DNA from: a virus
Taxonomy: Duplodnaviria > Caudoviricetes
IMG/VR virus record: IMGVR_UViG_3300020577_006811
Location: 1-64,000 of that record
Reading direction: 5' to 3' (one strand)
Length of the DNA stretch: 64,000 nucleotides
Below, in pieces: positions 21,165 to 60,270 of this stretch (positions are counted from its first letter, which is position 1; each line of letters begins with the position of its first letter). The position numbers and the translations under genes are program-made. The notes under the pieces were generated by a model that saw only the letters and a program-made list of their open reading frames with translations, made no database searches and was not told where the DNA came from.

Positions 21165-23747
21165 ATGGCCAAAAAGCCCGCCAAGTCCCGCTCCAAGAAA
21201 AAGATCCAGGAAATCCCGGCGTTCGAAGTCGGGGGCGCCATCATGGAGCCGGAAGGCGAGGCCGCGGCGCCGACGATGGATGCAGCCTTTGGCCCCGCCA
21301 TCACCATCGTTAACGACGACGACAGCGTGACCATTGAGTTTGACACGGGCGAGGAAGAACTTCCCGACCCCGAGTTTGAAGACAACCTTGCAGAGCATAT
21401 CGATCGCACGACGCTCGGGCGCATTGCCAGCGACCTGCTGGAGCAGATCGAACAGGACGACCGCGACCGCTCCGAGTGGCTGACCCAGCGCGCCGACGGC
21501 CTAGAACTGCTGGGCACGAAGGTGGAAAAGCCAGGCGGCGGCGCTGTGGGCACGTCGTCTACGGCGGTGCCGGGGCAATCCACCGTGCGCGACGGCATTC
21601 TCAACGAGGCCGTGATCCGCTTCCAGGCCAACGCCTTTGCCGAGCTTTGTCCCTCTGAAGGCCCGGTCAAGGTCATGAACTATTCCAGCGAAACGCTGGA
21701 CGACGACAAACTGGCTGAAGACCTTGAGAAAGACCTGAACTTTTATCTGACCGGAGCCGGCGGCTCGGCCACAGCGACCGAGTATTACCCCGACACCCGC
21801 AACATGCTGTGGTGGGTCGGGTATGCCTCTGGCATGTTCAAGAAGATCTACAACTGCCCGCTGCGAGGGCGCCCCGTTTCCGAAAGCGTGGACGGCTCCG
21901 ATCTGATTGTGCCGTCCACAGCCACCAACCTGCACAACGCCCGCCGCATCACGCATCAGATGACTATGAGTCCGGTCATCATGAAGCGGATGCAGGTGCT
22001 GGGCGAATACCGCAACGTCGCCTTGCAGCAACCGAGCCCGCACAACAACGCCCTGGTTAACAGTGAAGCCGACATCGTCGGCATGAACCCGAACCAGACG
22101 CGGCCCGAGGACCAGGACTTTACCGTCTACGAGTGCTACTGCGACCTGGACATCCCAGGCTTTGAGCACACCGACAAGAAGGGCGAGCCCACGGGGCTGC
22201 CCGTGCCCTACATCGTGGTGATCGACAAGGACTCGCAAGAGATCCTGAGTATCAAGCGCAACTGGGATAAGCCGAAAGAGGGCGAAGAGGCCAAGCTTCC
22301 CAAGGCCAAGATTCCCTTCGTGCTGTTCCCGTATGTCACCGGGCTTGGCTTCTACGGCCAAGGCCTGCTGCACCAGCTCGGCAACTACACCACCGCGCTT
22401 ACCGCGATGCTGCGCGAGTGCATCGACGCGGGCATGTTTGCCTCGTTCCCGGGCTTCCTGTTTGCCAAGCCCATGGGGCGCCAGCTTCAAAACGAGTTCC
22501 GCGTGCCACCGGGCGGCGGCGCACCGATCGATGTCTCTGCCACCGGCAACGACATCACCAAAGCCGTTATGCCGCTGCCGTACAAGGACGTGTCGGCGGC
22601 CATGGTCGCGCTCATGTCGCAGACGCGGGAGCAAGCGGCCCGCTACGGCGGCATGGCCGAATCACCGACTGGAGAAGGCGTCATCAACGCGCCCGTGGGC
22701 AGCGTGCTGGCGGCCATCGACCAGGCCACCCGCATTGAAGGCGGCGTCCACAAGGCCCTATATGCGGCGCAGCGCGAAGAGTTCGAACTGCTGTTTTCCT
22801 TGTTCAAGGACAACCCCGAACCGCTGTGGGCCGGCAACCCACGCCCGGCCATGGGCGCCGATCCCGCCACGCGCATGCGCCGCTGGGAGCAGGCCACCAA
22901 GCATTGCAGCCTGACGCCTGCGTCAGACCCGAACGTGCCCTCGCACATGCATCGCTTGGCCAAAGCCAGCACGTACCTGCAGACGGCTCTGGCCGTCCCC
23001 GGCGTGTTTGACATGCGCCGCGTGCTGACCCGTTGGGCCGCCATGGTGCGCATTGACGACATTGAACAGGACTTCCTGCCCGAGCAACCGCCAATGCAGC
23101 CGCCGCCGCTCAATCCGCTGCAGGTCGAGAAGCTGCGCATTGACGACAAGAATGCCGATACCCGCCGTCTTGACGTGGTTCTCAAGCACCAAGGCGCGAC
23201 CGCCAAACTGCAATCGGATCAGGAGATTGCAGCCGCCAAGATGGCCGAAGGACAGGCAACGGCTTTGGATCAGGGCCAGATTGACCCGCTTCAGGCGCGT
23301 GCGCTTGACCTCAAACAGCAGCAGTTGGACCAGAACGCGCAGAAGCTGGCCGTTGACGCGCACCAGAAGCATGCCGAACTGAACAGCAAGGAGTCTATTG
23401 AAGCGCTGAAACTGGTCAACGCTGCCTTCGTGCACCCGGAGTCGCAGGGAGTAGCAAGCCAGGAGATGGCAAAGCTTCAAGACATCATCGCGCCAGCTGC
23501 CGACAACAACCACCGCCCCGCCGCCGCGCCGTTCGGGTTGTCGTCCATGGCAGCCGGCGGCCCCGTGCGCGACGAAGAGACAGTCATTGAACCGGACGAG
23601 ATCATCGTCATCCGGCCTTACGAAGCCCCCTCTGAAGACGACATCGCGCAGGCCGTTGTGGAAGACGCCGCCTACAGGGCGCAGTTGGATCAAATCCTGC
23701 ACGATTATCTTCTTGGGCGTCGGCAGGAACGCGCCTATACCAATTGA
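21165..23747 (+). CDS. portal protein
   Basis: 860 aa after the terminase; DD.DRSEW...GLELLG, E.VIRFQA.A..EL.P..GPVK, FYG.GL.H.LG motifs; long coiled-coil C-terminus. Confidence 0.85.
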   Translation: MAKKPAKSRSKKKIQEIPAFEVGGAIMEPEGEAAAPTMDAAFGPAITIVNDDDSVTIEFDTGEEELPDPEFEDNLAEHIDRTTLGRIASDLLEQIEQDDRDRSEWLTQRADGLELLGTKVEKPGGGAVGTSSTAVPGQSTVRDGILNEAVIRFQANAFAELCPSEGPVKVMNYSSETLDDDKLAEDLEKDLNFYLTGAGGSATATEYYPDTRNMLWWVGYASGMFKKIYNCPLRGRPVSESVDGSDLIVPSTATNLHNARRITHQMTMSPVIMKRMQVLGEYRNVALQQPSPHNNALVNSEADIVGMNPNQTRPEDQDFTVYECYCDLDIPGFEHTDKKGEPTGLPVPYIVVIDKDSQEILSIKRNWDKPKEGEEAKLPKAKIPFVLFPYVTGLGFYGQGLLHQLGNYTTALTAMLRECIDAGMFASFPGFLFAKPMGRQLQNEFRVPPGGGAPIDVSATGNDITKAVMPLPYKDVSAAMVALMSQTREQAARYGGMAESPTGEGVINAPVGSVLAAIDQATRIEGGVHKALYAAQREEFELLFSLFKDNPEPLWAGNPRPAMGADPATRMRRWEQATKHCSLTPASDPNVPSHMHRLAKASTYLQTALAVPGVFDMRRVLTRWAAMVRIDDIEQDFLPEQPPMQPPPLNPLQVEKLRIDDKNADTRRLDVVLKHQGATAKLQSDQEIAAAKMAEGQATALDQGQIDPLQARALDLKQQQLDQNAQKLAVDAHQKHAELNSKESIEALKLVNAAFVHPESQGVASQEMAKLQDIIAPAADNNHRPAAAPFGLSSMAAGGPVRDEETVIEPDEIIVIRPYEAPSEDDIAQAVVEDAAYRAQLDQILHDYLLGRRQERAYTN

Positions 23748-23807
23748 CGTGCTGACTGTGCCGCGTATCTCAACTCAAACCAGAGGGCGCCACGCGGCGC
23801 GGTTCCC

Positions 23808-24245
23808 ATGAAGCTTCCCATGCGGTCCAAGATGGGCCAATCCCCTAAGCTCCGTCGCATCGGGGCCATGGGGTCCATGAAGATGGCCAAGAAAGCCGAG
23901 AACGCGCCGCGCAAGTACGCGAGCGGCGGTATCGTTGAGGCGGGCCCCGCCGTGGAGGGCGATGCGCCGAAGGCCCGTCTGGATAAACCCGGCCGCAGCA
24001 AGGGCAAGAAGGACGCCGGCAAGAAAGGCACCACGGTCAACATCGTAATTGCATCCGGCAGCAAACCCGCCGCACCTGACGCTATGCCGATGCCGCCCCC
24101 CGGCGCCGGCCCCATGCCGCCTCCGGCCCCCCCGCCCGGCATGCCGATGCGCGCCAGCGGTGGTCGCGTGCACGACGACAAGGCCCAAGACGAGGCGCTG
24201 TTCAACAAGATGATCAAGGCGCACGACGCGAAGAAGAAGTCCTAA
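23808..24245 (+). CDS. small basic Pro-rich protein with AxGG motifs
   Basis: KYASGGIV, VEGDAPKARLDKPGR, MRASGGRV. Confidence 0.7.
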   Translation: MKLPMRSKMGQSPKLRRIGAMGSMKMAKKAENAPRKYASGGIVEAGPAVEGDAPKARLDKPGRSKGKKDAGKKGTTVNIVIASGSKPAAPDAMPMPPPGAGPMPPPAPPPGMPMRASGGRVHDDKAQDEALFNKMIKAHDAKKKS

Positions 24246-24269
24246 CCCCAACCTGACGGAGACTGCCCC

Positions 24270-24380
24270 ATGTCCAAAGCCCCAAAGCCGCAGAAGTCCA
24301 TCATGAAGATCAAGGCCGGCGCCGGTTCAGCGGTTGGCCGACTGCAGAAAGCCGCTGCGCAGGCCAAGAAGGGAAAGTGA
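24270..24380 (+). CDS. small basic protein (36 aa)
   Basis: GGAG RBS; MSKAPKPQKSIMKIKAGAGSAVGRLQKAAAQAKKGK. Confidence 0.6.
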   Translation: MSKAPKPQKSIMKIKAGAGSAVGRLQKAAAQAKKGK

Positions 24381-24383
24381 CGC

Positions 24384-24668
24384 ATGACGGCTAAGACCGC
24401 TGCGACTGCCCCCGCCCCTGTACAAGAACCGCCGGCTCGGGAAGCCTACATCCCGAGCCATCCTGTCCTAGCGCCAGACCCAGTTGCCGTTCACCCGAAG
24501 GATCGCGACTGCTGCGGCAACTGTCCCGGCTGGAAGCAGGCGCACCCAAAGGCCCCATTTGGGCAGTGCCTTCCGGCCATCCGCTGGCTCGGCGCCCCCA
24601 TGTACACCCCCGATCTTGCCGGGTGCACGCTGGATGAGGCAACCAAGGCCAAGGGCGCAACGCGCTAA
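24384..24668 (+). CDS. Cys-rich hypothetical protein
   Basis: CCGNC...FGQC...AGC. Confidence 0.65.
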   Translation: MTAKTAATAPAPVQEPPAREAYIPSHPVLAPDPVAVHPKDRDCCGNCPGWKQAHPKAPFGQCLPAIRWLGAPMYTPDLAGCTLDEATKAKGATR

Positions 24669-24673
24669 CCGCC

Positions 24674-24950: not shown

Positions 24951-25403
24951 ATGAGCACGCTTCTCAAGTCCCCCATTCTCAGCCGCATGAAGATTGATCT
25001 TCAAAAGCTGGCAGAGCGGGACGGGAAAACATCATTCAAGGACTTGGTCTTCAAGAACATTGGCAAGCTGGACGACTTCGTCGTGCTTGGCGATGACGTC
25101 TTGGTGGCGACCTACGTCAAGATGGGCCGCACCGCTGGCGGCATCATTCTCACCGACAAATCGGTGGACGAGGACCGCTGGCAGGGCAAGGTGGGCCTCG
25201 TTCTGAAGCTTGGCGAAAGCGCCTTCAAGTACGAAGGGGCCTACGAATACAAGGGCACCGTTCCCAAGGTTGGCGACTACGTCGTGTTCCACACCAGCGA
25301 CACGCGAGAGGTTGGCATCAATGGCCATTCTTGCCGCACGGTGTCTTCCAGCTTGGTCCGCATGATCCTTCCAGATGAAGCCGCCGCCGATTCGATCTAC
25401 TGA
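24951..25403 (+). CDS. groES: GroES/Cpn10-like co-chaperonin
   Basis: LGDDVLV...RTAGGIILTD...G.VLKLG...KVGDYVVF. Confidence 0.85.
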   Translation: MSTLLKSPILSRMKIDLQKLAERDGKTSFKDLVFKNIGKLDDFVVLGDDVLVATYVKMGRTAGGIILTDKSVDEDRWQGKVGLVLKLGESAFKYEGAYEYKGTVPKVGDYVVFHTSDTREVGINGHSCRTVSSSLVRMILPDEAAADSIY

Positions 25404-25448: not shown

Positions 25449-26618
25449 ATGATTGACAACACGCAACCCATCCCCGTTGACGACGACTTCAGCGACCTTC
25501 TCGTGGAGATCGCCCCCGACAGTATGGAGATGGGGCAGGATGCCGACGGCATGCCAAAGGCGATGCCGGCCGAAGCCAAGGCCGCTCCTGTGGCCAAGGA
25601 GATGGTGGAGAAAGCCCCCCCGGTTCCCAAGCCCAAGTTCAGCGATGCCGATTACGAAGCGACGCAGGAAGCCCTGCGGCAGGCGCGCGAAGAGGCGGAA
25701 GCCTTGGCCCGTGACCGCACGCAGGAGCGTGAGGCACGGCTGAAGGCCGAACGGGACGCGCACAAACTGCACTACGCGGCGGTCAACGCGCATGCGCAGA
25801 AGGTGCAGGCGGAACTGGACCATGTGACCGACTCCATCAACCACTGGGAGACGACAGCCGAAGTGGCGCGGCGCAATCTGGCCTTGTCGCTGGAAGCGCA
25901 GAACGCCGAAGAAATCTCGAAGTGGACCAGCGCTATTGCCAAGGCGGAAACGTCAATCTCATCCCTCAAGAACGCACTGCCGACGCTGGAACACGAACAG
26001 CGGCTGGCGGCCCGGGATGTTGACATCGCGTCACGCACGCCGCAGCCGGAAGCCAAGAAAGAAGACCCAGCACCTCCTAAGCAGCAGACCCCCGACGACT
26101 GGATTGCCACGCAGCGCAAGGCGGTGGGCAGCAAGTTTGCGGATTGGCTGGACAACAACCGCGAGTTCGTCACCAACCGCAAGATGCATGAGAAGTTTCT
26201 GGCGTTCGCCAACAACTTCCAGGTCGTGGAGGAAATGCCCCTCAACAGCGACCAGTTCATTGAGGCCCTGAACGCCAAGTTCTTGGGCAAGCAACCCAAG
26301 CCGGAGGCCGAGGCCGTGAACGAAGAGCCCGAGACCCACGAGGACGCAGAGGAAGCCCCGGCCGCAACACCGGCCAAGCGCACGACGGTGGCGGCTCCCG
26401 TAACGCGCGGTCGCCCCGCCCAGCCGTCGTCGTCGGCCAACAAGATCACGCTGACCCGGGAGCAGTATGGCATCGCCCCGGATCTCTACCCCTCGTACAA
26501 CGACCTCTCCCCGGAAACGCGTGCCAAGTTCCCGGCCTGGTCGGAGAACGCCGCGCGCTATCAGTACAGCCAGGATCTGAAGCGCGCACAGGCCGACGGC
26601 AAGTTCAGCCGCGGCTAA
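25449..26618 (+). CDS. putative capsid scaffolding protein
   Basis: Acidic coiled coil upstream of the capsid genes; C-terminal KITLTREQ motif. Confidence 0.7.
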   Translation: MIDNTQPIPVDDDFSDLLVEIAPDSMEMGQDADGMPKAMPAEAKAAPVAKEMVEKAPPVPKPKFSDADYEATQEALRQAREEAEALARDRTQEREARLKAERDAHKLHYAAVNAHAQKVQAELDHVTDSINHWETTAEVARRNLALSLEAQNAEEISKWTSAIAKAETSISSLKNALPTLEHEQRLAARDVDIASRTPQPEAKKEDPAPPKQQTPDDWIATQRKAVGSKFADWLDNNREFVTNRKMHEKFLAFANNFQVVEEMPLNSDQFIEALNAKFLGKQPKPEAEAVNEEPETHEDAEEAPAATPAKRTTVAAPVTRGRPAQPSSSANKITLTREQYGIAPDLYPSYNDLSPETRAKFPAWSENAARYQYSQDLKRAQADGKFSRG

Positions 26619-27299: not shown

Positions 27300-27333
27300 C
27301 CTGAGTGACGCGTGTGCGAGACGCGAAACGCAG

Positions 27334-28412: not shown

Positions 28413-29324
28413 ATGGCAGCTAATAGCGCACAAATTCGCAACCTCCTCCTCCCGGGCCTGTACAAGGTCGCGGGTCAGTACGAGCGTTACCCCAAGGAGT
28501 GGTCGCAGATCTTTACGACCGTCAAGAGCACCCTGCAGACCGAATCTGCCGTGCAGACCCGCATTCTGGGCCTCGCGCAGATGAAGGTGGAAGGCGGCGC
28601 AACGGCCTTTGACAACAACATGGGCCAGCGCTGGGTGTGGAACGCCACCGCCTTCGAAGTGGCGCTCGGCTACGCAATCACCCTGCGCGCCATTGAAGAC
28701 AACCAGTACACCAAGGATTTCAACATGATGAACCTGAAGCTGATCGACAGCTTCAGCCAGTTCAAGGAAATCCAGGGTGCCAACATTCTCAACAACGGTC
28801 AGACCTACGATCCGACCGTTGGCGGTGACGGCGTGGCTCTGTTCTCCACGGCGCATCCCTACGACCTCGGCACATGGGCCAACACGTTCTCCACGCAGTT
28901 GGACCTCAACGAGTCGTCCCTGCTGCAGGCCTACGTGAATATCGGCTCCACGTTCGTGGACGAAGCCGGTCTGCGCGTGAACGCCAAGGCCACCAAGCTC
29001 ATCGTCCCCCCAGCCCTTGAGCCCGTTGCCCTGCGTCTGATGCGCTCGGAAATGCGCCCCGGCACCAGCAACAACGACCCCAACGTCATCCCGATGATGG
29101 AGGCCGGCACCGACAAGATGATGGTCTACCATTACCTCACGTCCAACTACGCGTGGTTCGTGAAAACCGACAAGGACGGCCTGCACTACTTCGACCGCAT
29201 CGCATTTGATGCGGACTCCTGGATCGACAACGTCACGGACAATATCCTACATAAAGGGAGAGAGCGCTACACATTTTCCTACCGCGATCCCCGAGCCATT
29301 TGGGGAAGTTTCCCTACATCCTAA
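28413..29324 (+). CDS. major capsid protein
   Basis: AQIRNLLLPGL, K.EG....D, .ALG.AIT..AIEDN.Y, DGVALFSTAHP, LIVPP.LE..A.RL, RY.FS..DPR motifs. Confidence 0.9.
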   Translation: MAANSAQIRNLLLPGLYKVAGQYERYPKEWSQIFTTVKSTLQTESAVQTRILGLAQMKVEGGATAFDNNMGQRWVWNATAFEVALGYAITLRAIEDNQYTKDFNMMNLKLIDSFSQFKEIQGANILNNGQTYDPTVGGDGVALFSTAHPYDLGTWANTFSTQLDLNESSLLQAYVNIGSTFVDEAGLRVNAKATKLIVPPALEPVALRLMRSEMRPGTSNNDPNVIPMMEAGTDKMMVYHYLTSNYAWFVKTDKDGLHYFDRIAFDADSWIDNVTDNILHKGRERYTFSYRDPRAIWGSFPTS

Positions 29325-31715: not shown

Positions 31716-32240
31716 ATGGATCTTTCCAAGATGCGCGCGCGCACGAAGATGCGCACAGTTGCGGGGCATTCTATTGCTCGGCAGAACCGGACATCGAAGG
31801 CTTTCACGAAGGCGGAGGCCGAGGCGAAGAACGCGCCGTATGCGGGCGAGTCTGGGATTGACGTTGAGGGCAACAAGCCGAAGCCGCGGCTGGATCGTCC
31901 GGCGCGGGCGTCGGGCGGTCGGGTGTGCCGCGCGGACGGCGGCGTGACGCTGTCTGAGGACAGCAAGAAGATGGCCGCGAAGTTGCGCGAAGACGCTTCT
32001 GACGATCAGAAGAGAGCTATCTTTAACGGCGGTGTCGCCGCCATGCTGGGCGGTTTGACAAAAGGCTCCAAGGTCGGCAAGGCGCTATTTGGTGCTAACG
32101 CGCTGATGGCCGGCACCGGGGCGCTTTCGGCTACGGGGAAAAGACTGGAAGCCAGAGAGATTGAACGTGGCCGCGCGGAAGAAGGCAAGGAAGACCGCAA
32201 GCGCGGCGGCCGTGTCGCTCGGGACAAGGATTGCGACTGA
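31716..32240 (+). CDS. basic AxGG-cassette protein (paralogue of 59572)
   Basis: RLDRPARASGGRVCRADGGVTLSEDSKK...GKEDRKRGGRV; AGGAG RBS. Confidence 0.75.
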   Translation: MDLSKMRARTKMRTVAGHSIARQNRTSKAFTKAEAEAKNAPYAGESGIDVEGNKPKPRLDRPARASGGRVCRADGGVTLSEDSKKMAAKLREDASDDQKRAIFNGGVAAMLGGLTKGSKVGKALFGANALMAGTGALSATGKRLEAREIERGRAEEGKEDRKRGGRVARDKDCD

Positions 32241-50800: not shown

Positions 50801-50885
50801 GCACAAGGTTCTTGACCAAATGGTGAGGCAAGGTAGATCAGAGACGATCCGTAAATTAGCGTCCCTTCCACCGCCCGCGAAATAG
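47808..50885 (+). CDS. putative polyvalent ejection protein: N-terminal inorganic-pyrophosphatase-like domain, AxGG motifs, C-terminal tandem SD..P...(P/S)xG(A/E)xV domains
   Basis: IAIENPKGS.R...YG.V...G.DGDPVDVYVG...DEHK; YAYGG, YAEGG, YAGGG, FARGG; PGRSDKLPVQVPNGAYV and ISDGEEVV. Confidence 0.75.
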   Translation: MAHPLATALARAEQQTETSLTDKAREEGSYRKGKLTWNDIPIAIENPKGSIRTGVGRDGKRWFCEMPAAYGEVRRSEGQDGDPVDVYVGPAHGSKRVWVIDQVDADTGRSDEHKCLLAFPNKDAALKAYEASFSDGKAKQRIGAVTELSVAEFRDFLKNGDTTKPMSQQKKSDKALEVAQRYTKGYAYGGRVGYAEGGPAGEIASEMTRDLRRDRQRRALAGRELTPDEEAAYADYVARLPERREMKARELDGFTSGIGDLLTPGETLPMMDARTRRQIAARSLAGRDLTYDQMRELADQEAVNEERSARLGVPLGIAATELTGVPSIMRGGSNVVRGIEERDPARIAGGALEGVIGAAPLGMVARPVAAALKPLTGSVPRFTATSMGASGLTSYADDAKAAERNVATRIASDPEVKAIIDKRTAALAEIQRVQEDLIAKNPAIQALEAKRAQQQLLRKATNDKYAKAGPETQKQALAPFDEEIKRINGQIQEISDGALKPYKDEVTRLTAALGTAEDRARAAYMDEATFREKYPGVPMALMAGGLGVAGALPLMKAGLGRVTDSWKRKSIEDATTKTENAFAGGLSDAETAIAQQRLQRHLDRWDADHGKIAGGWNFLANTGKGALLGAEASQLPEQLDYLTNAPGHPAREAAVKQLQNPEYWKERWGPALLGAGSAIMGHTAAHMIPQNREFLVPAREVASRGAEPSRVDALLAKLHGRSKPEGPTEDAIKQVQRYRSAVGPSGAREDAKMLEGLLDTPPGSGAPLPRPTSPELTALPSPSVIPPSAQAPSPSRSPEALSNLESAASKASDVIKQSKRSADMRPWEGAPPKGVKLPKGTLWDANMGRTRREDGTLGPAPRYSAPRKKDNPQSLPKSEQGEGKASGGIVGRVFDVVRRYAGGGRVVPHGLMAGDTPGRSDKLPVQVPNGAYVLPADFVSGLGEGNTMAGSKRFKEMSPPPAPGFARGGHVEIMISDGEEVVHPDVVAAWGGGDLDRGHKVLDQMVRQGRSETIRKLASLPPPAK

Positions 50886-50893
50886 GACGCCAC

Positions 50894-51409
50894 ATGCTTG
50901 CCTACACCGACTTGAAGGTGCGCCCTGCCGACCCTCGCGATGAAGAGGATCTGGTGGATATGTGCCGCCTGCTGCACCAGGAGAGTGGCATCCGGGATGG
51001 GCAGAACGCGCCCTTTCCGTTCGATGAATGCAAGGTGCGCGCGATGGTGCAGCAGGTGACCACGCCGCAGCGCAACGATCCTGCGGCCGGCCATTCGTTC
51101 TGCGGCATCATTGGACCCTACGGCGACATTCAGGCCTCCATCTATCTGACCCGCTCCGAGCCTTGGTATTCGTCGCAGCCGTTCCTGCAGGAGGTCTGGA
51201 ACTTCGTGCATCCAGACCACCGCAAGGGTCCCCACGCCAAGGCGTTGATCGCTTTCTCCAAGGTGATGGCGCAGTGCTGGGAGCAGACCTTGGTGGCTGG
51301 CGTGATGTCCACGCAGCGGGTGGAGGCCAAAAAACGCTTCTACGCCCGTGAGTACCAGGTTGAGCCGTTCGGCGCCTTCTTCGTCTACAACCATCCGCAG
51401 GGGGCCTGA
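50894..51409 (+). CDS. GNAT-like acetyltransferase-fold protein
   Basis: VRPA...D...L...L..E; L.EVWNFVHPDHRKGP.AKALI.F. Confidence 0.7.
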   Translation: MLAYTDLKVRPADPRDEEDLVDMCRLLHQESGIRDGQNAPFPFDECKVRAMVQQVTTPQRNDPAAGHSFCGIIGPYGDIQASIYLTRSEPWYSSQPFLQEVWNFVHPDHRKGPHAKALIAFSKVMAQCWEQTLVAGVMSTQRVEAKKRFYAREYQVEPFGAFFVYNHPQGA

Positions 51410-51414
51410 CCGCC

Positions 51415-53241
51415 ATGGGCTTCATTTCCGATCTGTTCGCGCCAAAGACCTCGCAGCAGGCACAACAGCAGGGCACGTCCACCACCAGCAACAATGCCTG
51501 GGGTGCGGTCCAGCCGTACATGAACCAGTACCTGCAACAGTTCTCGGCCGGGAACATTGCGGGCGCGCAGACTCCGGTCACGCCGTATCAATACGCAGCT
51601 GCCGACAGTCAGATGGGCACGGCGGCCAATCTGACGCCTGCGTATGCCGCGGCTGGCGATGTGGCGTCTGGCGGTATCAACCCCGCAAAGATCAGCGGGT
51701 ACATGTCGCCCTACATCTCCAATGTGGTGGACGCGACGCGGGCTCAATTTGCGAACAACAATGCGCGTACGTTGGCAGGCCAGCAGGCCTCCACCGCAAA
51801 AGCGGGCGCTCTGACAGGGACGCAGCGCGCGGTCGGCCGTGCCATCTCCGAAGGACAATTGGCGGCGGCTCAAGACCCAGTCATTGCCAGCCTTTACAAC
51901 CAAGGCTACGGGCAGGCGGCCAATCTCGCGCAGGCAGATACGAACGCTCGGCTGGCAGGCGCTAGCACATTAGGGAGTCTTACAGGCGCACAGACAAGCG
52001 CCAATTCGGCCTTGGCCGCCATGGGTAACCAAATCTGGAACAATCAGTACCAGAACACGCTGACGCCTTTCAATCTGACCACGCAAGGTGCCGCTGGGTT
52101 GACCCCACTCACCAACGCCGCTGGCACCGCTACAAGTTCTAGCGGGTCGTCAACGGGGACGACCACACAAGCCCCAGGCGCCATCCAAAGTCTGATGGGG
52201 CTCGCGGGGCTTGGATTGTCCGGTTACGACTACGGGGTTGGCAAGGGCTGGTTTGCGGACGGTGGTCGCGTGGGCTACGCAGAGGGTGGCTCCGTGATCA
52301 AGCCCTTTGAGGGCGCCAGCGAGCCGTTCCACGCCAAGATGGAAAAGGCTTTCCACACAATCCAGCGGCTCAAGGAATACGCCAAGGGCGGTCCCGTGTC
52401 GTCGCGCTATGCCGATGGGGGCGCCATCGGGCCTTGGGAAACCACAGTTGAGCGCGCCCCCGCGGAGCCAACGCCAGAGGCACAGTTCGGCAAGCGGCTT
52501 GAATCCATCGGCACGGCCATGACGCCTTATCGTGCGTCTGGTGACGATGTCGGCGGCGTCGGCAGCCTGACGCGGTTCATGGAGGGCGTGCGCAGCGCCA
52601 ATATCCCGCGCTATGCGGGCGGCGGCTTTATTGATCCAAAAGACAACGATCCGGCCATTACGCCGTATGGGGCCGAGCCAAGCGCACCCCCGTCCTACCT
52701 CGGGCGCGGCACGCAGCCTCCTTCTTCCTCAGTCCAGCCGAGAGAACCGATGAGCACGGTGCGGCCGATGTCACCGGAAGCTCAGTTCGCGTCGGTTTTG
52801 CTGTCCGGAAGCCCGATTGCTGGCAGCGGACAGGCGATGCGCGATCTGCAACAGCAGCGCATTCAGGAAGAAGAAAACAAGCGCAACAATGCCCTGGCGC
52901 AAGCGCGGTACGCGCTGGAGGCGGCGCGCAACCCGCATCTGATTGAGCAATTGAAGGCGCACAGCATCGGTGGCCAGAAGGAACTGAAGTCGTACGAATA
53001 CACGATGCAGAAGGATCTGGAAGCCATCAAGAGCCTGCGCGAAATCGAGAAGGGCATTGATGATGCGGTCATGTATGGCGTCATCACCCCGGATGAAGCC
53101 AACATGCGGCGACAGGCGGCGCGTGACCAGTACCAGCAGAACCGCGGCCTGATCCAGGGCGTCAAGACGCCACCGAAGGCCATGCCGACATCGCCTCCGG
53201 GCGCGGTGCGGGAGTGGGTGCCGGGCAAAGGCTTGCAGTAA
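51415..53241 (+). CDS. putative DNA ejection / internal virion protein
   Basis: Gln/Ala/Gly-rich; YMSPY..NVVD motif; five AxGG motifs. Confidence 0.75.
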   Translation: MGFISDLFAPKTSQQAQQQGTSTTSNNAWGAVQPYMNQYLQQFSAGNIAGAQTPVTPYQYAAADSQMGTAANLTPAYAAAGDVASGGINPAKISGYMSPYISNVVDATRAQFANNNARTLAGQQASTAKAGALTGTQRAVGRAISEGQLAAAQDPVIASLYNQGYGQAANLAQADTNARLAGASTLGSLTGAQTSANSALAAMGNQIWNNQYQNTLTPFNLTTQGAAGLTPLTNAAGTATSSSGSSTGTTTQAPGAIQSLMGLAGLGLSGYDYGVGKGWFADGGRVGYAEGGSVIKPFEGASEPFHAKMEKAFHTIQRLKEYAKGGPVSSRYADGGAIGPWETTVERAPAEPTPEAQFGKRLESIGTAMTPYRASGDDVGGVGSLTRFMEGVRSANIPRYAGGGFIDPKDNDPAITPYGAEPSAPPSYLGRGTQPPSSSVQPREPMSTVRPMSPEAQFASVLLSGSPIAGSGQAMRDLQQQRIQEEENKRNNALAQARYALEAARNPHLIEQLKAHSIGGQKELKSYEYTMQKDLEAIKSLREIEKGIDDAVMYGVITPDEANMRRQAARDQYQQNRGLIQGVKTPPKAMPTSPPGAVREWVPGKGLQ

Positions 53242-53253
53242 GGAGACGACGCT

Positions 53254-54345
53254 ATGGGCATTACGGTTCGCGATCCGGACGGCGGCACGCACACGTTCCC
53301 GGACGGCACGCCCGACAGCGTGATCAATGCGGAGATGGAGCGTCGCTGGTCGTCTCGCGGACAACCGCAGGCGCCCCAGCCAAAGCCGCTGACCACGCCG
53401 GACAAGCTCCCGCCCGGCGCTAATCCGGGAACGATCTCGGCCAAGCCCGGATCTGTTCTGGAGGCCGACATGGTGCCGTTGTCGGCCGATGCACAGCGCG
53501 GCCTGCGCATGATTGCCGGTGGGGGCGCCACGAACAACCGTGCCATGGAGCAGGCGGGTCGGCTGCTGGTCGATAAAGACCCGACGTACCAGGCGCGCAC
53601 GGCACAGGTGAAAGCCATCGGCGACGCTGCGGGCAAGCGACAGGCCGCACGACTGGCCGGCGAGAACATCTTTGGCAGTTTCGCCAAGCTTCTGCACACC
53701 TTCAACGAGGCGGACGACGACGCCCTGGAGGGCGCAATCGGTCCATACGCAGCCAGCCCCTATATGGGGAAAATGCCCTTAGTCGGAGGCATGACGCCAC
53801 CACAGGCGGCGGCAGCTTACGGTGATCATTGGGCAAATCCGTTGAGTTGGATGTCAGGCGCAAAGGACGCCGATAAATCCTGGAACCTGCAGAACCTGTT
53901 CTCGCATGACGTCCATGGCATCACGAATGCACTGGTGTCGGCGGCGGGCAGCGGCGTGAAGATGTCTGACGCGCGGCAGGAAATGTTTGATTCCGCCATG
54001 CGCGACTTCATGAAGTCTACCAACCGCAAGGATGCGCGCAAGATCCTCGACCACGCCATGGGCATCATCGCCAATGACTTCCACATCACGCCGCAAGAAT
54101 CCAAAATGCTTCTGGAAAACAATCTGAAGCGGATAAAGGCCGAAGCCCGCGAAAAACAGGAGGCCCTGACCCTGCGCGCGGCAGAAGTGCCTCCGGATGC
54201 CGTCCAATTGCTGTTGCAGAACGCGAAGAACAAGAAATATCGGACCGACTTCAACAAGACGTTCAACGACGGCGAGGAAGGGCTTGCGGAAATCTTGATC
54301 AAGAGCGCGGACGCCCGTACCAAGAAAAAGCAACCTCAGGAATAA
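53254..54345 (+). CDS. putative ejection protein
   Basis: V..PDG....FPDGTP...I N-terminus; AGGAG RBS. Confidence 0.7.
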   Translation: MGITVRDPDGGTHTFPDGTPDSVINAEMERRWSSRGQPQAPQPKPLTTPDKLPPGANPGTISAKPGSVLEADMVPLSADAQRGLRMIAGGGATNNRAMEQAGRLLVDKDPTYQARTAQVKAIGDAAGKRQAARLAGENIFGSFAKLLHTFNEADDDALEGAIGPYAASPYMGKMPLVGGMTPPQAAAAYGDHWANPLSWMSGAKDADKSWNLQNLFSHDVHGITNALVSAAGSGVKMSDARQEMFDSAMRDFMKSTNRKDARKILDHAMGIIANDFHITPQESKMLLENNLKRIKAEAREKQEALTLRAAEVPPDAVQLLLQNAKNKKYRTDFNKTFNDGEEGLAEILIKSADARTKKKQPQE

Positions 54346-54354
54346 AGGCGCCCC

Positions 54355-56733
54355 ATGGCGGACGATAACAATCCCTTCGCGCGCTTCGTGGCCAAGAAGC
54401 CCGAAGAGGACAACCCGTTCGCCCAGTTCGCGCGGCCTAAGCCGGAGACGCCTGCTGAGGCCGACACCGGGAATGTCGGCGCGTATGCGCGCGCGTTACC
54501 TACGGACGGGGCGGCATCCAGCCACGCCGATGGCAAGGACAACCGGTCGTGGACGCAGTGGGCGCGCGACAGCGTCATGGGGCGCCATGACCCCGTGTAC
54601 CACGGCATCCCCACGTTTGACGAGGCCATGCAGGAGGAGAACAAAGGCAACTTCTTTGCCTCTCCGGAGATCCGGCGCATCCGCACAGGTGCCATGACGG
54701 CGGGTGACGACGCGATCTACGGCGACATCATGAAAGCGGCCATCGGCGACCGGTTCATTCGGAAGGAGACCGACGCCAATGGCTACGATGTCATCGTCTA
54801 CCACGGTAAAGACGGCACCGAAAAGAAGGCGTACGTGAACCGGCCGGGTCTTGACGCCGAGGATGTCAGCCGTGGGTTGGCAAGCGCTATTCCTTACGGG
54901 CTGGCTGGACTGGCTGCCGCGTATACTGGGGGCACCGCGCCCTTGATCGCACGTGGCGTCGTGCAGGGCCTCAGCCAAGCCGGAACCAGCATCGGCATGG
55001 ACATGCTGTCTAAGCCTCTTGGTTCGGAGCAGGGGGTGGACAAAACCCGTGCTGGGATCATGGGCGCCATGGGGGTCGCGGGCGAACTTGCAGCCCCCGC
55101 CGTCGCTGCGGCTTGGCGCAATCTGGTAACGGTGCCGGGGCTGTTTGATGCGGCCGTTGGACGTTTGACTCCGAAAGGGTATCAGGTCGCGATTGATATC
55201 GGACTTGACCCTAACACCTTCACCAAAGATATGGCGAAAGCCTTCGCCAAGGAATACGCCATCACGGGCGATGCGGCGGCAGCTGGGCGGCAGGTGGCTG
55301 CGTCCGACCTTGGGATTGTTTCTACCGTGGGACAGCGGTCCAAAAATCCGCTGGAACTGCTGGAAGAGATGTCCATGCGCAAGGGCCTAAAGGGTACCGC
55401 CGCACAGGAGGAGATGAAGCGATTTGACGACTTGCAGGCGCAGCAATTAACGCGCGCCGCTATGGGCGATGCAGAGAACGCGGGCGCCGGCAATCTGCCG
55501 AACAGCAAAGGCATTGCAGCAGCACTCAACCCGTCGCGTGATCTGAAAGACGTCGTCCCCGCCGAACTCGGCACAGACATCAAGGAAGGCGTGAAGGCCG
55601 CTCAGCGGGCTGCGCGCGACGCCGAAAACCAGGCATGGCAGGGACTGCACAACGTTACCGCGCACCCCGACGCCATGAAGTTGCTGCCGCAAGCCATTGG
55701 CACTGAGTTGGGCGACCGCGCCGTGGATCAGACCGTGACGCCTGCGGCTTACAACATGGCGAAGATGCTGCAAGGCTACATGAGTGGCGACGCCATGAAG
55801 CAGCCGTTTGAGGTGTTGGGCCAGACAGCGGCGACGCCAACGGTTGACGGTATGCGGCGGCGCTTGCTGGCCGGCATGGGCGGCGCGGCGACGCCTGAGG
55901 ATCGCGCAGTGGCAGGAAAGATCTACGACGGGTTCAACAATTGGATCAAGGAAGCGGCGGACGCTCAGTTGCTGGCTGGGCACCCGGACGCCGCCGTGGC
56001 CTTGCGCAGCGCGCGCGAGATCAGCCGCGAGGTCAAGGATCTGTTCCAGCCCCGGGACCGATCCGGCACCACGGCCGCAGGCCGGATTATTGACCGCGTT
56101 CTGTCCAAAGAAGATACCCCCGAAGGCGTCGTGCGCGCGCTGGTGGGCACGCCAAGTTCCGATCTGAAGACTGGAACGGTTGACGCGCTGAGCCGGATGA
56201 AGAAGGCCTTGGACACCTACGGTGGGCCGGAGGGCGTCAACACATGGAACGACATCCGCAGCGCTTACTATATGCGTATGGTGACGGAGCCGACTGGGAA
56301 GTTATTGTCACCGCAGAAGATGCTGACGTCCATTGAGAAGGCCTTCGGCAAGCAGAAATCGGCGCTGGATGTTCTGTTCACGAAAGACGAACTCGGCCAG
56401 ATGAAGAAGCTTCAGAAGTCGCTGGAGCAGATCACGTACAAGGACCCGAACCCGTCAGGCTCCGGTTACGCCATCGCTCAGTTCGTCAAGGACGCGATGG
56501 GCAAGTTGCTCTCTGTTGTCGAAATGGTTCCTGGCGGTGGCTACGCTACCGCTCCGTTGCGGGTCGCTGGCCACATCACGAGTACAGCGCGCAAGGAAAT
56601 GGCTGGCGCCAAGGCAGCCGCAGCAGCCACCAGTCAAGTGGCGCCGCGCACGCCGCCGCCTGCACTCGGGCCGCAGGCGTCGCTTCTAGCGCAGCAGTAT
56701 TTGCGGATGCGCGAGCCCGAGCGCCGCGACTAA
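54355..56733 (+). CDS. putative large ejection protein
   Basis: Tandem NPF..F N-terminal repeats; helical; last gene of the tail module. Confidence 0.7.
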   Translation: MADDNNPFARFVAKKPEEDNPFAQFARPKPETPAEADTGNVGAYARALPTDGAASSHADGKDNRSWTQWARDSVMGRHDPVYHGIPTFDEAMQEENKGNFFASPEIRRIRTGAMTAGDDAIYGDIMKAAIGDRFIRKETDANGYDVIVYHGKDGTEKKAYVNRPGLDAEDVSRGLASAIPYGLAGLAAAYTGGTAPLIARGVVQGLSQAGTSIGMDMLSKPLGSEQGVDKTRAGIMGAMGVAGELAAPAVAAAWRNLVTVPGLFDAAVGRLTPKGYQVAIDIGLDPNTFTKDMAKAFAKEYAITGDAAAAGRQVAASDLGIVSTVGQRSKNPLELLEEMSMRKGLKGTAAQEEMKRFDDLQAQQLTRAAMGDAENAGAGNLPNSKGIAAALNPSRDLKDVVPAELGTDIKEGVKAAQRAARDAENQAWQGLHNVTAHPDAMKLLPQAIGTELGDRAVDQTVTPAAYNMAKMLQGYMSGDAMKQPFEVLGQTAATPTVDGMRRRLLAGMGGAATPEDRAVAGKIYDGFNNWIKEAADAQLLAGHPDAAVALRSAREISREVKDLFQPRDRSGTTAAGRIIDRVLSKEDTPEGVVRALVGTPSSDLKTGTVDALSRMKKALDTYGGPEGVNTWNDIRSAYYMRMVTEPTGKLLSPQKMLTSIEKAFGKQKSALDVLFTKDELGQMKKLQKSLEQITYKDPNPSGSGYAIAQFVKDAMGKLLSVVEMVPGGGYATAPLRVAGHITSTARKEMAGAKAAAAATSQVAPRTPPPALGPQASLLAQQYLRMREPERRD

Positions 56734-57062
56734 CGCAGTCCCAGCCACAATAGCACCGCGGCGCCTCCCACCACCATAAATGGGACGGCGCCGTCTTTTA
56801 TTTCGTCGGGCGGCAGGCGCTGCCAGGCGGTGCGCACGCTGTTGTAGGTCGCCCAGATGAAGAACGGCGGCAGGGCGACGTTGAAGCAGAACGCGGTCCA
56901 TGCGGCGGAGTGGTCGGGGAGCGCGGCGCCAAGGTAGCCCCAGGCCACGGCCTGCAGCAGACCGTAGCAGCAGGCGTGCACGATGAGGAGCCGGCCGGGC
57001 CGGTTGCGGGCGTCGGCAAGGTAGTCTCTAGCTTGAGCTAAGGCGGTTCCCAGCGTCCCCAT
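56730..57062 (-). CDS. multi-TM membrane protein, convergent to the ejection genes
   Basis: Three hydrophobic segments; stop overlaps the stop of 54355. Confidence 0.55.
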   Translation of the reverse strand: MGTLGTALAQARDYLADARNRPGRLLIVHACCYGLLQAVAWGYLGAALPDHSAAWTAFCFNVALPPFFIWATYNSVRTAWQRLPPDEIKDGAVPFMVVGGAAVLLWLGLR

Positions 57063-57306
57063 CAGGGGTGGCTAGGCTGATTTGCGTGGTCCGGACAGGG
57101 CAGCGAACGGCTTATCCACGGCCGTTGGCCTCTCAAAGAAGCCAAAATCGCGCAAGATGCCCACTTTGGGTCGGGGGCGTCTATTGATCCTTAGGTGAGC
57201 GGTTGCCGGCACAATCCTTGCCGTGCGGGCTTTGGTCCAAGGCGTGGCTAGTCTATGAGCGCTGTCCTATGTTCCGTTTGCCTAAAGATTGGTCCAAGGC
57301 CGCATC

Positions 57307-57774
57307 TCAGGCAGCTTGCTCAACGAGATCGGTTGCTGGGCCAACACTTGGCCTTTGCCGGCGCCCGATATGGCGCCAACGAGCCGCCTTTGCTGCCTTC
57401 AGAGATATGCCCATTTCGCGCGCAATCCCTTCGTCATTCCCGTGCTTTGCGTCGGCCGCCTTAAGCTTGGCGATGCGCTCGGCGTCCCAGGTGCGCCAGC
57501 CGCGCTTGCTGAACCTTGGCAGCGGGGCTTTCTGGTCTGTGGCCTCAAACGCTCGGGCCATCGCTTTCGCGACAGCCACACGGTGAAGCGGCGAAAGGGC
57601 CGCATAATTTTCAGCGTATTTCGGGCTGGCCAGGAAATCCCGGAACGTCTTCATGTTCCCAAACTTCGCGATGTGCGCGAATTTCTTGAGCAGGAAGCTG
57701 TTTGCCTTATAGGGCGAGATGTAGCGAATGCTCATGGTCTCCGGCGATAATTTTTTATTTGGTGCTGGCATCAT
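57307..57774 (-). CDS. protein with C-terminal GcrA-like HTH
   Basis: W..ERIAKLK...IAREMGIS.KA...R; lower GC. Confidence 0.55.
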   Translation of the reverse strand: MMPAPNKKLSPETMSIRYISPYKANSFLLKKFAHIAKFGNMKTFRDFLASPKYAENYAALSPLHRVAVAKAMARAFEATDQKAPLPRFSKRGWRTWDAERIAKLKAADAKHGNDEGIAREMGISLKAAKAARWRHIGRRQRPSVGPATDLVEQAA

Positions 57775-57875
57775 GGTCGGCTTACTCCTCACGCTACATC
57801 CGTTCGCTGCGTTCCCCAAAATTAAAATCCCACGCTGAAGGCGCCGTCAAGGCGACAGTAGCAGGAGCGCATTGC

Positions 57876-58988
57876 ATGCCGATCATCATGAAGCCTGACG
57901 TGCTGGACTTATCTTCTTGGAACAACGTTGAGGACTGGTTCGCCGTCAAGAATTCCGGCATCAAGGGGATCATTCACAAGGCGTCAGAGGGTGTCGGCTT
58001 CGTGGACCGCACCTACGCCAAGCGCAAAGCCGACGTTGAGCGCGCGGGGATGCTCTGGGGCTCGTACCATTTCCTGAACCGGGCACCCGCCGACCAGCAA
58101 GCGAAGCACTACATCAAGGCGTCGCTGTGGACGCCGGGCGCCAACATGCTGCTATGTTGCGACTGGGAGCCGTACGGCGCCAACACCGCGTCACTGGCTC
58201 AAGCCAAGGAATTCCTGCGCATCGTCTACGAGGAGACGGGGCAGCGCCCGGTGCTCTATTCCGGCAACCTCGTCAAGGAACAAGGCCGCGGAGATCCGTT
58301 CCTGTGCCAGCACCGACTTTGGCTGGCGCAATACACACAAGGGCGCCCGCAACTCCCTAGGGGGTGGTCGCAGTATTGGATGTGGCAGTACGCGGGGGAC
58401 GGTATCTTTGGCACGGGCACCATCCCAGGCATTTCCACTAAGGGCATTGACTGCAACACGTTTGGCGGCGTTGACCTCGCTGCCGAATGGGCTGGACGCT
58501 TGCAAGACCGGCGCAACGCGCCGACGCCAGAGCCGAGCGAAAGCCCGTACATTGAGCCCGTAGATCCTGCGGAAATGGCGTCTGGCGCACCTGCGGCTGG
58601 TGGCGCCGGGCCAACAACTGAGCCCGTTTCGCTGACCTCACGCATCGTGACCGCAAGCACGACGGCCGCAGCCATCAATGAGCTTAGCGATCAGGGATCA
58701 AGACTTGGCAATCTGTTTCGTACCGTCAAGCAGCGCTTTTGGAAGGCGGTAGCCACCACGGGGGCTGTGGGCGGTGCCGCTGGCGGCGTGGTCAAGACCG
58801 ATCAGGGCAACGCCGCCACCATTGCGGACTGGGCGCAGGCGCACCCTATCGCTTTTGGCTGCATCATCGGCGGCGGCATCGGTCTACTGGTCGGCGGTAT
58901 CCTGCTCTACTTCGTGGTCAAACGCGGCGAACGCTGGTTGGCAACGGCCTACAACGCCGGCCGCTACGAGCCGCGCAAGGAGGCTTGA
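57876..58988 (+). CDS. GH25 muramidase endolysin with C-terminal membrane segments
   Basis: DLSSWN, KASEG, G.YHF, CCDWE, LWLAQY, WQY; hydrophobic C-terminal stretches; AGGAG RBS. Confidence 0.9.
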   Translation: MPIIMKPDVLDLSSWNNVEDWFAVKNSGIKGIIHKASEGVGFVDRTYAKRKADVERAGMLWGSYHFLNRAPADQQAKHYIKASLWTPGANMLLCCDWEPYGANTASLAQAKEFLRIVYEETGQRPVLYSGNLVKEQGRGDPFLCQHRLWLAQYTQGRPQLPRGWSQYWMWQYAGDGIFGTGTIPGISTKGIDCNTFGGVDLAAEWAGRLQDRRNAPTPEPSESPYIEPVDPAEMASGAPAAGGAGPTTEPVSLTSRIVTASTTAAAINELSDQGSRLGNLFRTVKQRFWKAVATTGAVGGAAGGVVKTDQGNAATIADWAQAHPIAFGCIIGGGIGLLVGGILLYFVVKRGERWLATAYNAGRYEPRKEA

Positions 58989-58991
58989 GCC

Positions 58992-59303
58992 ATGATCCCG
59001 ATTGGTTTCGACGTCGCCATGGTGCTGCGATTTATTGCCGGGCTCGGCATTGCGGCAGCCGTCTGGTGGGTTGCTGACGCCATTGGCGACGCGCGTGAAG
59101 CGAAAATCTACGCTCGCATTGATCGTGCGATCGAAAGCACAAACGCAGAAATTGACAAGCGCCTGACGCTTGATGAAAGAGTAGCGGCAGTCGCTGAAGC
59201 GGCCCGCGCGAAAGCGCTGTCCGATGCGTTGCGTCTCCCCTCGGTTGCTGTTGCGTGCCCCGCCAACAAAGCTCAGGCCGAAGCCCTGAGCGCAATCAAG
59301 TAG
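58992..59303 (+). CDS. putative i-spanin (Rz-like)
   Basis: N-terminal TM followed by coiled coil, after the endolysin. Confidence 0.65.
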   Translation: MIPIGFDVAMVLRFIAGLGIAAAVWWVADAIGDAREAKIYARIDRAIESTNAEIDKRLTLDERVAAVAEAARAKALSDALRLPSVAVACPANKAQAEALSAIK

Positions 59304-59310
59304 GCGCCTT

Positions 59311-59568
59311 ATGCGGAAATTCGCTCCCCTTGTCTGCCTCGCTCTCGGCGCTTGCGGCACCGCGCAGGCCGTGCCGACTGTGCCAGGCAAGATCACGCCG
59401 CCGTCGCGCGAACTGATGAAGCCGCCGGCCGACCTGCCGAAGCTGACCGAAGGCGACAGCATTTACGATCATGCGGCCATGTGCCGGGCCGAGTACGGGC
59501 GCGTTTCCAGCCAAGTCACAGGGCTCCAATCGTGGTCCACCATCGTCACTCGCCGGAAAGGAAACTGA
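59311..59568 (+). CDS. putative o-spanin lipoprotein (Rz1-like)
   Basis: Lipobox LALGA|C; Pro-rich periplasmic part. Confidence 0.7.
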   Translation: MRKFAPLVCLALGACGTAQAVPTVPGKITPPSRELMKPPADLPKLTEGDSIYDHAAMCRAEYGRVSSQVTGLQSWSTIVTRRKGN

Positions 59569-59571
59569 CCC

Positions 59572-60270
59572 ATGGCCGCGAAGTCTAAACTGATGCTGAT
59601 GAGCAAGATCAAGGCGAAGAAGAAGCCTGAGCACAAGGCGGCCGTTGAAGGCGACGCGCCTCGCCAGAGACTGGACCGTCCGGGCCGGATGCGGATGCGT
59701 CGCGCGGATGGCGGGGTGACGATCAGCGAGGATAGCAAAAAGGAAGTCGAGCGTCTGCGTGATCATGGAGACAAGAACGCCATGATTGCAGCCGGCAAAG
59801 GCGCCACTGCGGGTTTTTTGATTAACAGACTTGGCCAAGCTATGGGTGGTTCAAAGCCCGCGTCCCGGGCTGTCGGGACAGCCGCTGGATTGTTAGGGAT
59901 GGGCGCGGACGAACGTACAAAAAAAGCGGCCGACGCATTTCGCGAATCCAACCGCATTGAACGCGGCGAGGCCGAGCCCGGCAAGGAAGACCGTGCCGCC
60001 GGAGGTCGCGTCAAGCGCGCAGATGGGGGCATCGTTGAAGATTACATCAAGCCCGGACTTCCGACTGCGGTGCCCGCTGCTATCCAATCGCTTGCCCGTC
60101 GTTACCTGCCATCGCGCCGCGACCCGGAGATGGAGGCGAAACTTAAAGACGCGGCCTCTAACGCGGCGACGGGAGCAGGTGGCGCCCTTATGAAAGCGGG
60201 TCTCCGGCCGTCTGGCAAGGCGGTTGACGGCAAGGAAGATCGCAAGCGCGGTGGGAGGGTTTGCAAATGA
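59572..60270 (+). CDS. basic AxGG-cassette protein (paralogue of 31716)
   Basis: RLDRPGR..RRADGGVTISEDSKK...GKEDRAAGGRVKRADGG...GKEDRKRGGRV. Confidence 0.75.
   Translation: MAAKSKLMLMSKIKAKKKPEHKAAVEGDAPRQRLDRPGRMRMRRADGGVTISEDSKKEVERLRDHGDKNAMIAAGKGATAGFLINRLGQAMGGSKPASRAVGTAAGLLGMGADERTKKAADAFRESNRIERGEAEPGKEDRAAGGRVKRADGGIVEDYIKPGLPTAVPAAIQSLARRYLPSRRDPEMEAKLKDAASNAATGAGGALMKAGLRPSGKAVDGKEDRKRGGRVCK

Follow-up and report, generated by a model that had tools for sequence, protein, structure and literature searches.

The window analysed here (64,000 nucleotides, one strand) covers positions 1 to 64,000 of a phage contig of 82,194 bp and about 60% G+C, IMG/VR virus record IMGVR_UViG_3300020577_006811 (Duplodnaviria; Caudoviricetes). 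Its late region encodes five proteins which share a short repeated heptad, [R/K/Y/F/M]-A-x-G-G-x-[V/I], present in about 20 copies in total. The recurrence of this motif had been noticed in a preliminary description made from the letters alone, and all the motif strings listed there were found at the genes to which they had been assigned. The five carriers are three small basic paralogs and two proteins of the ejection cluster. They are given below with the positions of their motif copies, together with the C-terminal module of one of them and a further copy in the portal.

23547-23567, + strand: MAAGGPV in the C-terminal part of the portal protein, with Met at the first position; not counted in the system
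23808-24245, + strand: basic protein 1, encoded just after the portal gene; Pro-rich, pI 10.4; YASGGIV at 23916, RASGGRV at 24150
31716-32240, + strand: basic paralog 2; RASGGRV at 31905, RADGGVT at 31929, RKRGGRV at 32196
47808-50885, + strand: cargo-carrying module protein in the position of T7 gp14; N-terminal InPase domain at about 47877-48281 (Pfam, E 3e-43); YAYGGRV at 48363, YAEGGPA at 48387, KASGGIV at 50457, YAGGGRV at 50505, FARGGHV at 50700
50502-50882, + strand: C-terminal module of the preceding protein; two hairpin-plus-helix units in tandem, with a motif copy at the head of each
51415-53241, + strand: ejection protein whose N-domain family matches phrog_4287 'DNA ejection protein'; FADGGRV at 52252, YAEGGSV at 52276, YAKGGPV at 52378, YADGGAI at 52408, YAGGGFI at 52612
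59572-60270, + strand: basic paralog 3, after the spanin genes; RADGGVT at 59701, RAAGGRV at 59992, RADGGIV at 60016, RKRGGRV at 60241

For counting, the strict pattern [YFRK]-A-x-G-G-x-[VI] was used. It occurs 14 times in the set of 78 proteins, whereas 0.31 ± 0.56 matches were expected from within-protein shuffles and 0.09 (maximum 2) from shuffles of 20-residue blocks; the mirror-image pattern gave no match in the same protein set. Whole-protein shuffles, block shuffles and the reversed motif thus rule out a composition artefact, and enrichment over a composition-matched background, the lack of which the preliminary description had named among its refuting conditions, was obtained. All 14 strict copies are confined to the five carriers, in which 17 of the 35 GG dipeptides stand in the context of the motif (3 of 137 in all other proteins). 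A six-frame scan of the 82-kb genome yielded 16 strict matches, 14 of them inside the five carrier open reading frames (ORFs). The other two are stray matches: YAYGGVV at 11670, in a putative gene for 84 residues in the early region (ORF 11529-11783), and RAAGGKV at 81401, beyond the window. No copy was found in the capsid and scaffold proteins by these scans. The copies are written in differing codons, which therefore indicates selection at the protein level and rules out a repeat at the DNA level.

The portal was rejected as a carrier. The C-termini of the portals of related phages lack the MAAGGPV copy, the portal tail scores nothing against a hidden Markov model (HMM) of the hairpin unit, and a single unconserved copy is indistinguishable from chance. 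Among the carriers originally named, the small basic proteins and the ejection proteins are thus retained and the portal is not.

The copies are placed at borders between protein parts. In the protein encoded at 47808-50885, the InPase domain ends at residue 176 and the doublet YAYGGRV-G-YAEGGPA starts at residue 204, which puts the motif between the cargo and the structural parts; a middle part of about 690 residues separates this doublet from KASGGIV. In the protein encoded at 51415-53241, all five copies lie in the linker behind the N-domain. In the basic paralogs 2 and 3, the last copy, RKRGGRV, is found 13 and 4 residues from the C-terminus, respectively.

The C-terminal 150 residues of the protein encoded at 47808-50885 form a module common to proteins with differing N-terminal domains, and in homologs the parts joined to it include InPase, CHAP, lysozyme, SLT, ADP-ribosyltransferase and LPD23. 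Scanning IMG/VR with single-protein queries (ejection protein, portal) gave no matches, whereas alignment-based scans did. A relative of the module is encoded in 496 IMG/VR stretches, and 1,310 module matches at E<=1e-30 were obtained when 1.84 billion cluster representatives were searched with a profile. The portal is 29-53% identical to that of the window in 32 of 33 long records carrying these genes; many of these records have terminal repeats and represent complete genomes of 55-104 kb. The late region of the genome has neither a tube gene nor one for a sheath or a ruler, and the homologous cluster of its relatives matches the SU10 adaptor family (PF24175); we therefore consider the phage to be short-tailed. 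As judged from their genes, the module-bearing phages form one large uncultured clade with tails of the SU10 type. None of the cultured phages in the GenBank phage set has the module; the cultured relatives DSL-LC04 and CRP-902 carry a few motif copies and one copy, respectively.

In the clade, the adaptor and nozzle genes are followed by those for a protein of about 118 residues, the module protein, a GNAT acetyltransferase, a large ejection protein (1,200-1,800 residues, often with a wall hydrolase and Peptidase_S74) and, lastly, a protein of about 700 residues. T7 has a matching gene order with matching sizes (adaptor, nozzle, a protein of about 180 residues, large ejection proteins), and small basic proteins are present as well. 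By position and size, the module protein would fill the place of T7 gp14. In contrast to the proteins described here, T7 gp6.7, gp7.3, gp14, gp15 and gp16 lack the motif, and the tail differs in being of the SU10 type with a PF24175 adaptor.

Enrichment of the motif in related genomes, which had been suggested as a check, was found in both protein families of the ejection cluster. The clade module proteins contain 240 copies against 12.4 expected and the family of the ejection N-domain 89 against 14, whereas the minus-strand ORFs of the same clade, used as a control, contain 8 against 10.5. A set of 149 module-protein representatives with less than 50% mutual identity contains 363 copies (20 expected), with at least one copy in 143 of the 149. 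Among homologs of the 51415 protein (n=31, 32-59% identity over the aligned part), 1-6 copies occur in the same linker, with no variation in the GG columns; likewise, the first copy keeps its GG in all of the minimal module proteins (n=34, 43-98% identity to the reference). The clade profile reads [R/Y/F/K/M]-A-x-G-G-x-V-[G/D/P], with R at position -3 and G at -1, and its flanks abound in G, A, P, D and S. Where copies stand close together, they most often form doublets with a spacing of 8-9 residues. The Pfam domains of 9 cargo proteins are free of the motif. Relatives of the cargo protein carry lysozyme together with InPase or LPD23 together with CHAP; the motif is found between lysozyme and InPase in one of them and directly after InPase in another.

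A motif-bearing ORF is also found just downstream of the portal in 16 of 30 clade portal loci, and most of those listed are small, basic, Pro-rich proteins with 1-8 copies of [RK]-[AK]-x-G-G-[RK]-V. The three small basic proteins of the window are probably virion-internal. Paralogs 31716-32240 and 59572-60270 have VEG..P..RLDRP and GKEDR..GGRV in common, and the protein encoded at 23808-24245 bears a second short motif, K-x-R-L-D-K-P-G-R. In the small basic proteins of the window and its relatives, K-x-R-[LM]-D-R-[PA]-x-[RK] was observed just upstream of the heptad and H-x-D-x-x-Q-D-x-x-L-I just after it, and many of the relatives end with a C-terminal D-A-G-A-G-S-G-x-G-R-L-E-K-I. A search of the ESM Atlas with the basic protein gave nothing useful.

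The C-terminal module was predicted by AlphaFold as two tandem hairpin-plus-helix units followed by a long C-terminal helix (predicted local distance difference test, pLDDT, 80; predicted template modelling score, pTM, 0.71), and this helix ends in LPPPAK (LPGPAK/KKD in relatives). A minimal module protein of 183 residues (L068:9794-10345 and relatives) adds an N-terminal helical hairpin that corresponds to DUF6496 (M-P-L-K-K-G-S-S-Q-K-T-I-S...) and is not present in the module protein of the window. In the model of this minimal form, a helix of residues 26-42 stops at R41-A42 and the confidence collapses from G44, while the second copy of the motif is placed just ahead of a disordered stretch (119-123). 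In these models, the copies are thus predicted to sit at borders between order and disorder and not inside folds. No solved fold resembling the module was found in the PDB by Foldseek, VIA-align or sequence, and the matches to the module in BFVD were uncultured-phage unknowns only. The minimal module protein gave matches to more than 1,000 short proteins (30-99 residues), and standalone DUF6496 hairpins of 40-76 residues make up the majority of the 120 best matches. Since these standalone proteins end in Lys/Arg tails and not in the motif, a mature end at GG was not supported.

The closest parallel to this arrangement comes from tape measure proteins of long-tailed phages. The T5 tape measure protein pb2 was reportedly described by Boulanger and colleagues in 2008 as cut during maturation into pb2* and pb2C. 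More recently, the cut was mapped by mass spectrometry to the bond after R1127, immediately ahead of a muralytic segment (Linares et al. 2023, PMC10038345). The T5 genome record shows R1127 within V-P-R/A-E-G-G-M-M-Y (the slash marks the cut bond), which is followed by G-E-H-G-T-E-V-V-T-P, and the C-terminal fragment beyond this bond has 92 residues, in agreement with the published size. The cut sequence R1127/A-E-G-G-M-M fits the motif exactly. Only two motif matches occur in the 1,219 residues of pb2 (the other, RALGG at residue 138, is away from the cut), so the chance of a match at the exact cut bond is about 0.002. T5-like phages with 37-69% identity keep both the R-A-[ES]-[GS]-G site (RAEGG, RASGG, RASSG) and the G-E-x-G-x-E unit. 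The G-E-x-G-x-E-V-V-x-P hairpin stands about 10 residues after the motif, as does the hairpin in the second half of the module of the window (median 11), and the T5 cut parts an enzymatic C-terminal piece from a structural part, much as the motif stands beside cargo domains here. In contrast, T5 is long-tailed and has one C-terminal copy in one protein, whereas about 20 copies in five proteins occur in this short-tailed phage. Moreover, the cut was mapped in T5, whereas cutting of the proteins here is a prediction, and most copies here are not followed by a hairpin: it was seen after the two copies of the C-terminal module, the first half of which has G-A-Y-V instead of G-E-x-V, and after none of the others.

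The tape measure protein of lambda offers a second parallel. Hendrix and Casjens are said to have reported in 1974 that gpH is cut to gpH* plus gpHC. According to the 2025 Ur-lambda paper, gpH loses about 14 kDa from a Gly-rich region, and both the site and the catalyst are stated there to be unknown (PMC12617516). Within this Gly-rich C-terminal region, we found in gpH residues 733-783 the succession F-A-T-G-G, H-R-G-E-F-V, G-V-G-N-L and Y-A-T-G-G, that is, the same order of elements as in the module. If the rule seen in T5 holds, the lambda protein would be cut at F733/A734 or Y778/A779; a cut at the former bond gives calculated products of 79.8 and 12.5 kDa, the latter to be compared with the fragment of about 14 kDa. 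An hhalign comparison of the module with gpH aligned the motif, GE[YF]V and GxG[DN] in register, but the similarity is weak (E 5e-4, probability 30%), and the hmmsearch score of 2.5-5.7 bits is not significant. No Pfam family covers the joint region of gpH, in which PF09718 stops at residue 701. Sequence homology of the module region to pb2 was not detectable. Because the similarity to gpH is weak and that to pb2 undetectable, we propose that the motif belongs to the same kind of joint as in the tape measure proteins and do not claim homology.

These data point to the heptad as a conserved joint in disordered linkers between the modules of proteins which are packed in the head and ejected: the protein in the gp14 position with its fused InPase, the large ejection protein and the three small basic proteins. 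It would correspond to the C-terminal joint of siphophage tape measure proteins in both motif and order of elements, with a G-E-x-V hairpin about 10-15 residues later. We infer by analogy with T5 that many copies would be cut between the bulky residue and Ala, during assembly or after ejection, and that cutting would release cargo domains and short basic peptides from the virion-anchoring parts. A processing joint cut before Ala is the explanation that we favour, although we would put it slightly below an even chance. In several homologs of the 51415 protein (P0004, P0008, P0010, P0016, P0018; L067:6809-10756; L030:9722-14167), the self-cleaving chaperone domain Peptidase_S74 is inserted right after the N-domain. 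The presence of a self-cleaving domain at the same spot in some homologs suggests that separation at this point is used in the family.

The catalyst was sought in 33 related records, 25 of which are at least 90% complete, with control genomes that gave matches. Peptidases of the S78, ClpP, C39, C48 and JAB families were absent from the 33 records (the T4-type S77 and S49 families lay outside this search), and the Pfam and PHROG scans of the late proteins of unknown function of the phage gave no peptidase. As no protease was recognised in the phage, the enzyme is proposed to be either a host protease or the adjacent hairpin unit itself. In the latter, bolder proposal, which we consider improbable, the hairpin-plus-helix unit found in T5 pb2, in lambda gpH and twice here would itself be the enzyme or the reader, as a small undescribed maturation peptidase or a clamp on [bulky]/A-x-G-G, acting on tape measure proteins in cis and, in this phage, on the other internal proteins in trans. 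Were this so, it would explain the cutting of both gpH and pb2 and would give one processing code common to the ejected proteins of long- and short-tailed phages.

Apart from the missing peptidase families, several observations weigh against processing. No member of the clade has been cultured, and processing within it is a prediction. One site per junction would suffice, yet the linkers of homologs hold up to six, and the closely spaced doublets and the copies at 4-13 residues from the C-termini are typical of multivalent docking motifs. Cutting at both copies of the module would split a domain which AlphaFold folds as one unit. The weak similarity to gpH, the undetectable similarity to pb2 and the majority of copies that lack the downstream hairpin of T5 and lambda count on the same side. 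Finally, S74 and the motif occur together in the same proteins, and the motif is therefore not simply a substitute for S74. The alternative of a maturation cleavage site, one of two offered in the preliminary description, has a precedent in the cut of T5 pb2 inside the same motif, while the prohead proteases of the S78 or ClpP kind that might have performed it are absent from the 33 records.

The other alternative offered there, a capsid-loading signal, survives best among the competing explanations. The motif would then be an uncut, multivalent docking tag, a short linear motif by which internal proteins are attached, while the internal core assembles, to a partner that is repeated in the virion; a ring of the module protein, the portal, the scaffold and the capsid interior are candidate partners. 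Such a tag would account for the restriction of the motif to head-internal and ejected proteins, the position of the copies in disordered linkers, the turnover of copy number and position among homologs, the frequent doublets and the copies near C-termini. It also agrees with a conservation that is balanced on either side of GG (R at -3, G at -1, V at +2) and with the lack of a protease among the five families searched for. The module and the motif-rich ejection proteins occur together in 47 of 59 loci, but the presence of both in almost every locus leaves this test without power. The cis copies are not docked onto the module in the AlphaFold models, and the same sequence is a mapped cleavage site in T5. 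We regard docking as a serious but clearly less probable explanation.

A structural hinge, with neither partner nor enzyme, is unlikely. A bulky residue and Ala would stop a helix and Gly-Gly would provide a flexible joint for unfolding and threading through the tail channel. The end of the helix of the minimal module protein at R41-A42, the collapse of confidence from G44 and the flanks rich in G, A, P, D and S are what would be expected of it, but many copies are not preceded by a helix and some follow Pro-rich or Gly-rich stretches. Furthermore, a hinge does not need the near-fixed Ala, the bulky residue and Val at +2 that are kept across hundreds of lineages, and the reversed pattern is not enriched.

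Still less probable is a chaperonin handle, in which the motif would mimic the mobile loop of GroES ([KR]-small-x-G-G-x-[VI]) and recruit the GroEL of the host to ejection or ruler proteins that are large and unfolded. The mobile loop of E. coli GroES reads K-S-A-G-G-I-V-L. The motif resembles this loop as well as that of the GroES-like protein of the phage itself, R-T-A-G-G-I-I-L, 30 of 33 clade records retain a Cpn10 (GroES) gene, which is also present in the cultured relative CRP-902, and the T5 copy is trailed by three hydrophobic residues (GG-M-M-Y). A study of T5 tail-protein cleavage by Zweig and Cummings from 1973 is cited in support of a requirement for host chaperonins in the assembly of phages; however, the dependence of T5 on GroE may be indirect, through a block of tail assembly. 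In the motif, GG is followed by a variable residue, Val and then G, D or P, whereas the GroES loops of the clade continue with I-[IFY]-L. Two of the three hydrophobic residues after GG are thus missing, and with them most of the surface that binds GroEL, so that we judge the mimicry to be weak. Explanations outside these four are, taken together, about as unlikely as a hinge or slightly more so. Chance, a by-product of Gly/Ala-rich composition or recent internal duplication, to which the G+C content of about 60% and the paralogy of the three basic proteins might point, is refuted by the block shuffles (0.09 vs 14), the reversed motif (0), the differing codons and the conservation both in homologs of 30-50% identity and in 149 representatives less than 50% identical, and has a negligible probability.

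Returning to the processing joint, comparison with other systems limits the analogies that can be drawn. The preliminary description had compared the motif with the di-Gly sites of double-glycine leaders and ubiquitin-like proteins. This analogy fails because the corresponding peptidases are absent from the 33 records (PF03412 for C39, PF02902 for C48 and PF14464 for JAB) and because T5 pb2 is cut before Ala and not after GG; in addition, the copies are internal and multiple, unlike those of leaders, and lie in disordered linkers. The prohead cut sites of the HK97 type differ in the absence of S78 (PF04586) and ClpP-like (PF00574) enzymes from the same records. Closer in kind are the polyvalent proteins, which were argued to need processing into separate units, with a built-in zinc peptidase (MPTase) proposed for it (Iyer, Burroughs, Anand, de Souza, Aravind 2017, PMC5512222). 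They are likewise multidomain proteins delivered in the virion and share InPase, CHAP, lysozyme, ART and LPD23 domains with the proteins studied here, including the fusion of InPase to the module. In the passages of that paper on linkers, glycine and cleavage, a junction motif was not found, and the MPTase was not found in the module and cargo proteins of the window and its relatives by domain scans.

The cleavage of the lambda and T5 tape measure proteins has been known for about 50 years. What is new relative to the literature is the spread of such a motif, in many copies, over several of the internal proteins in short-tailed phages; we found no published description of the motif, and searches of the literature with the motif strings returned noise. 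Its coincidence with the one mapped site (T5 R1127/AEGG) leads to a concrete prediction for lambda, F733/A734 or Y778/A779. The idea of a joint is hereby extended to short-tailed phages, in an uncultured clade of very large size (1,310 module representatives, as noted above), where the joint would part swappable injected enzymes from the anchoring module that they have in common. Should cutting take place, the joints would constitute a way in which phages release injected effectors; should it not, the motif would be a new virion-loading tag. In either case, it can serve as a practical marker for ejected cargo proteins in metagenomic phage genomes.

The remaining features of the late region, among which the carrier genes are interspersed, are as follows.

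15742-18672: large terminase, 976 residues
after the large terminase and before the portal: tRNA array of nine genes
21165-23747: portal
24951-25403: GroES-like protein of the head module (Cpn10, E 6e-7), with the mobile loop quoted above
25449-26618: scaffold candidate, an acidic coiled-coil protein
28413-29324: major capsid protein
between the major capsid protein and the nozzle-like protein: tail and fibre genes
45076-47367: nozzle-like protein
47808-56733: ejection cluster
50894-51409, + strand: GNAT-type acetyltransferase (phrog_1249), located between two motif-rich ejection genes
57702-59568: lysis cassette, encoding a GH25 muramidase, an i-spanin-like protein and an o-spanin-like lipoprotein

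The GNAT family (Pfam Acetyltransf_7, E 7e-7) was found in 92 of 139 related loci, after the module gene in the gene orders listed. The acetyltransferase could modify the ejected proteins or serve as an injected effector. In the large terminase, the terminase matches begin at about residue 450 and the stretch 88-153 matches part of a ribonucleotide reductase family; the N-terminal part may be an insert or a fused domain. The GH25 muramidase has a Gly-rich, hydrophobic C-terminal segment, the o-spanin-like lipoprotein has the lipobox L-A-L-G-A-C, and the gene of the basic motif protein at 59572-60270 comes directly after this lysis cassette.

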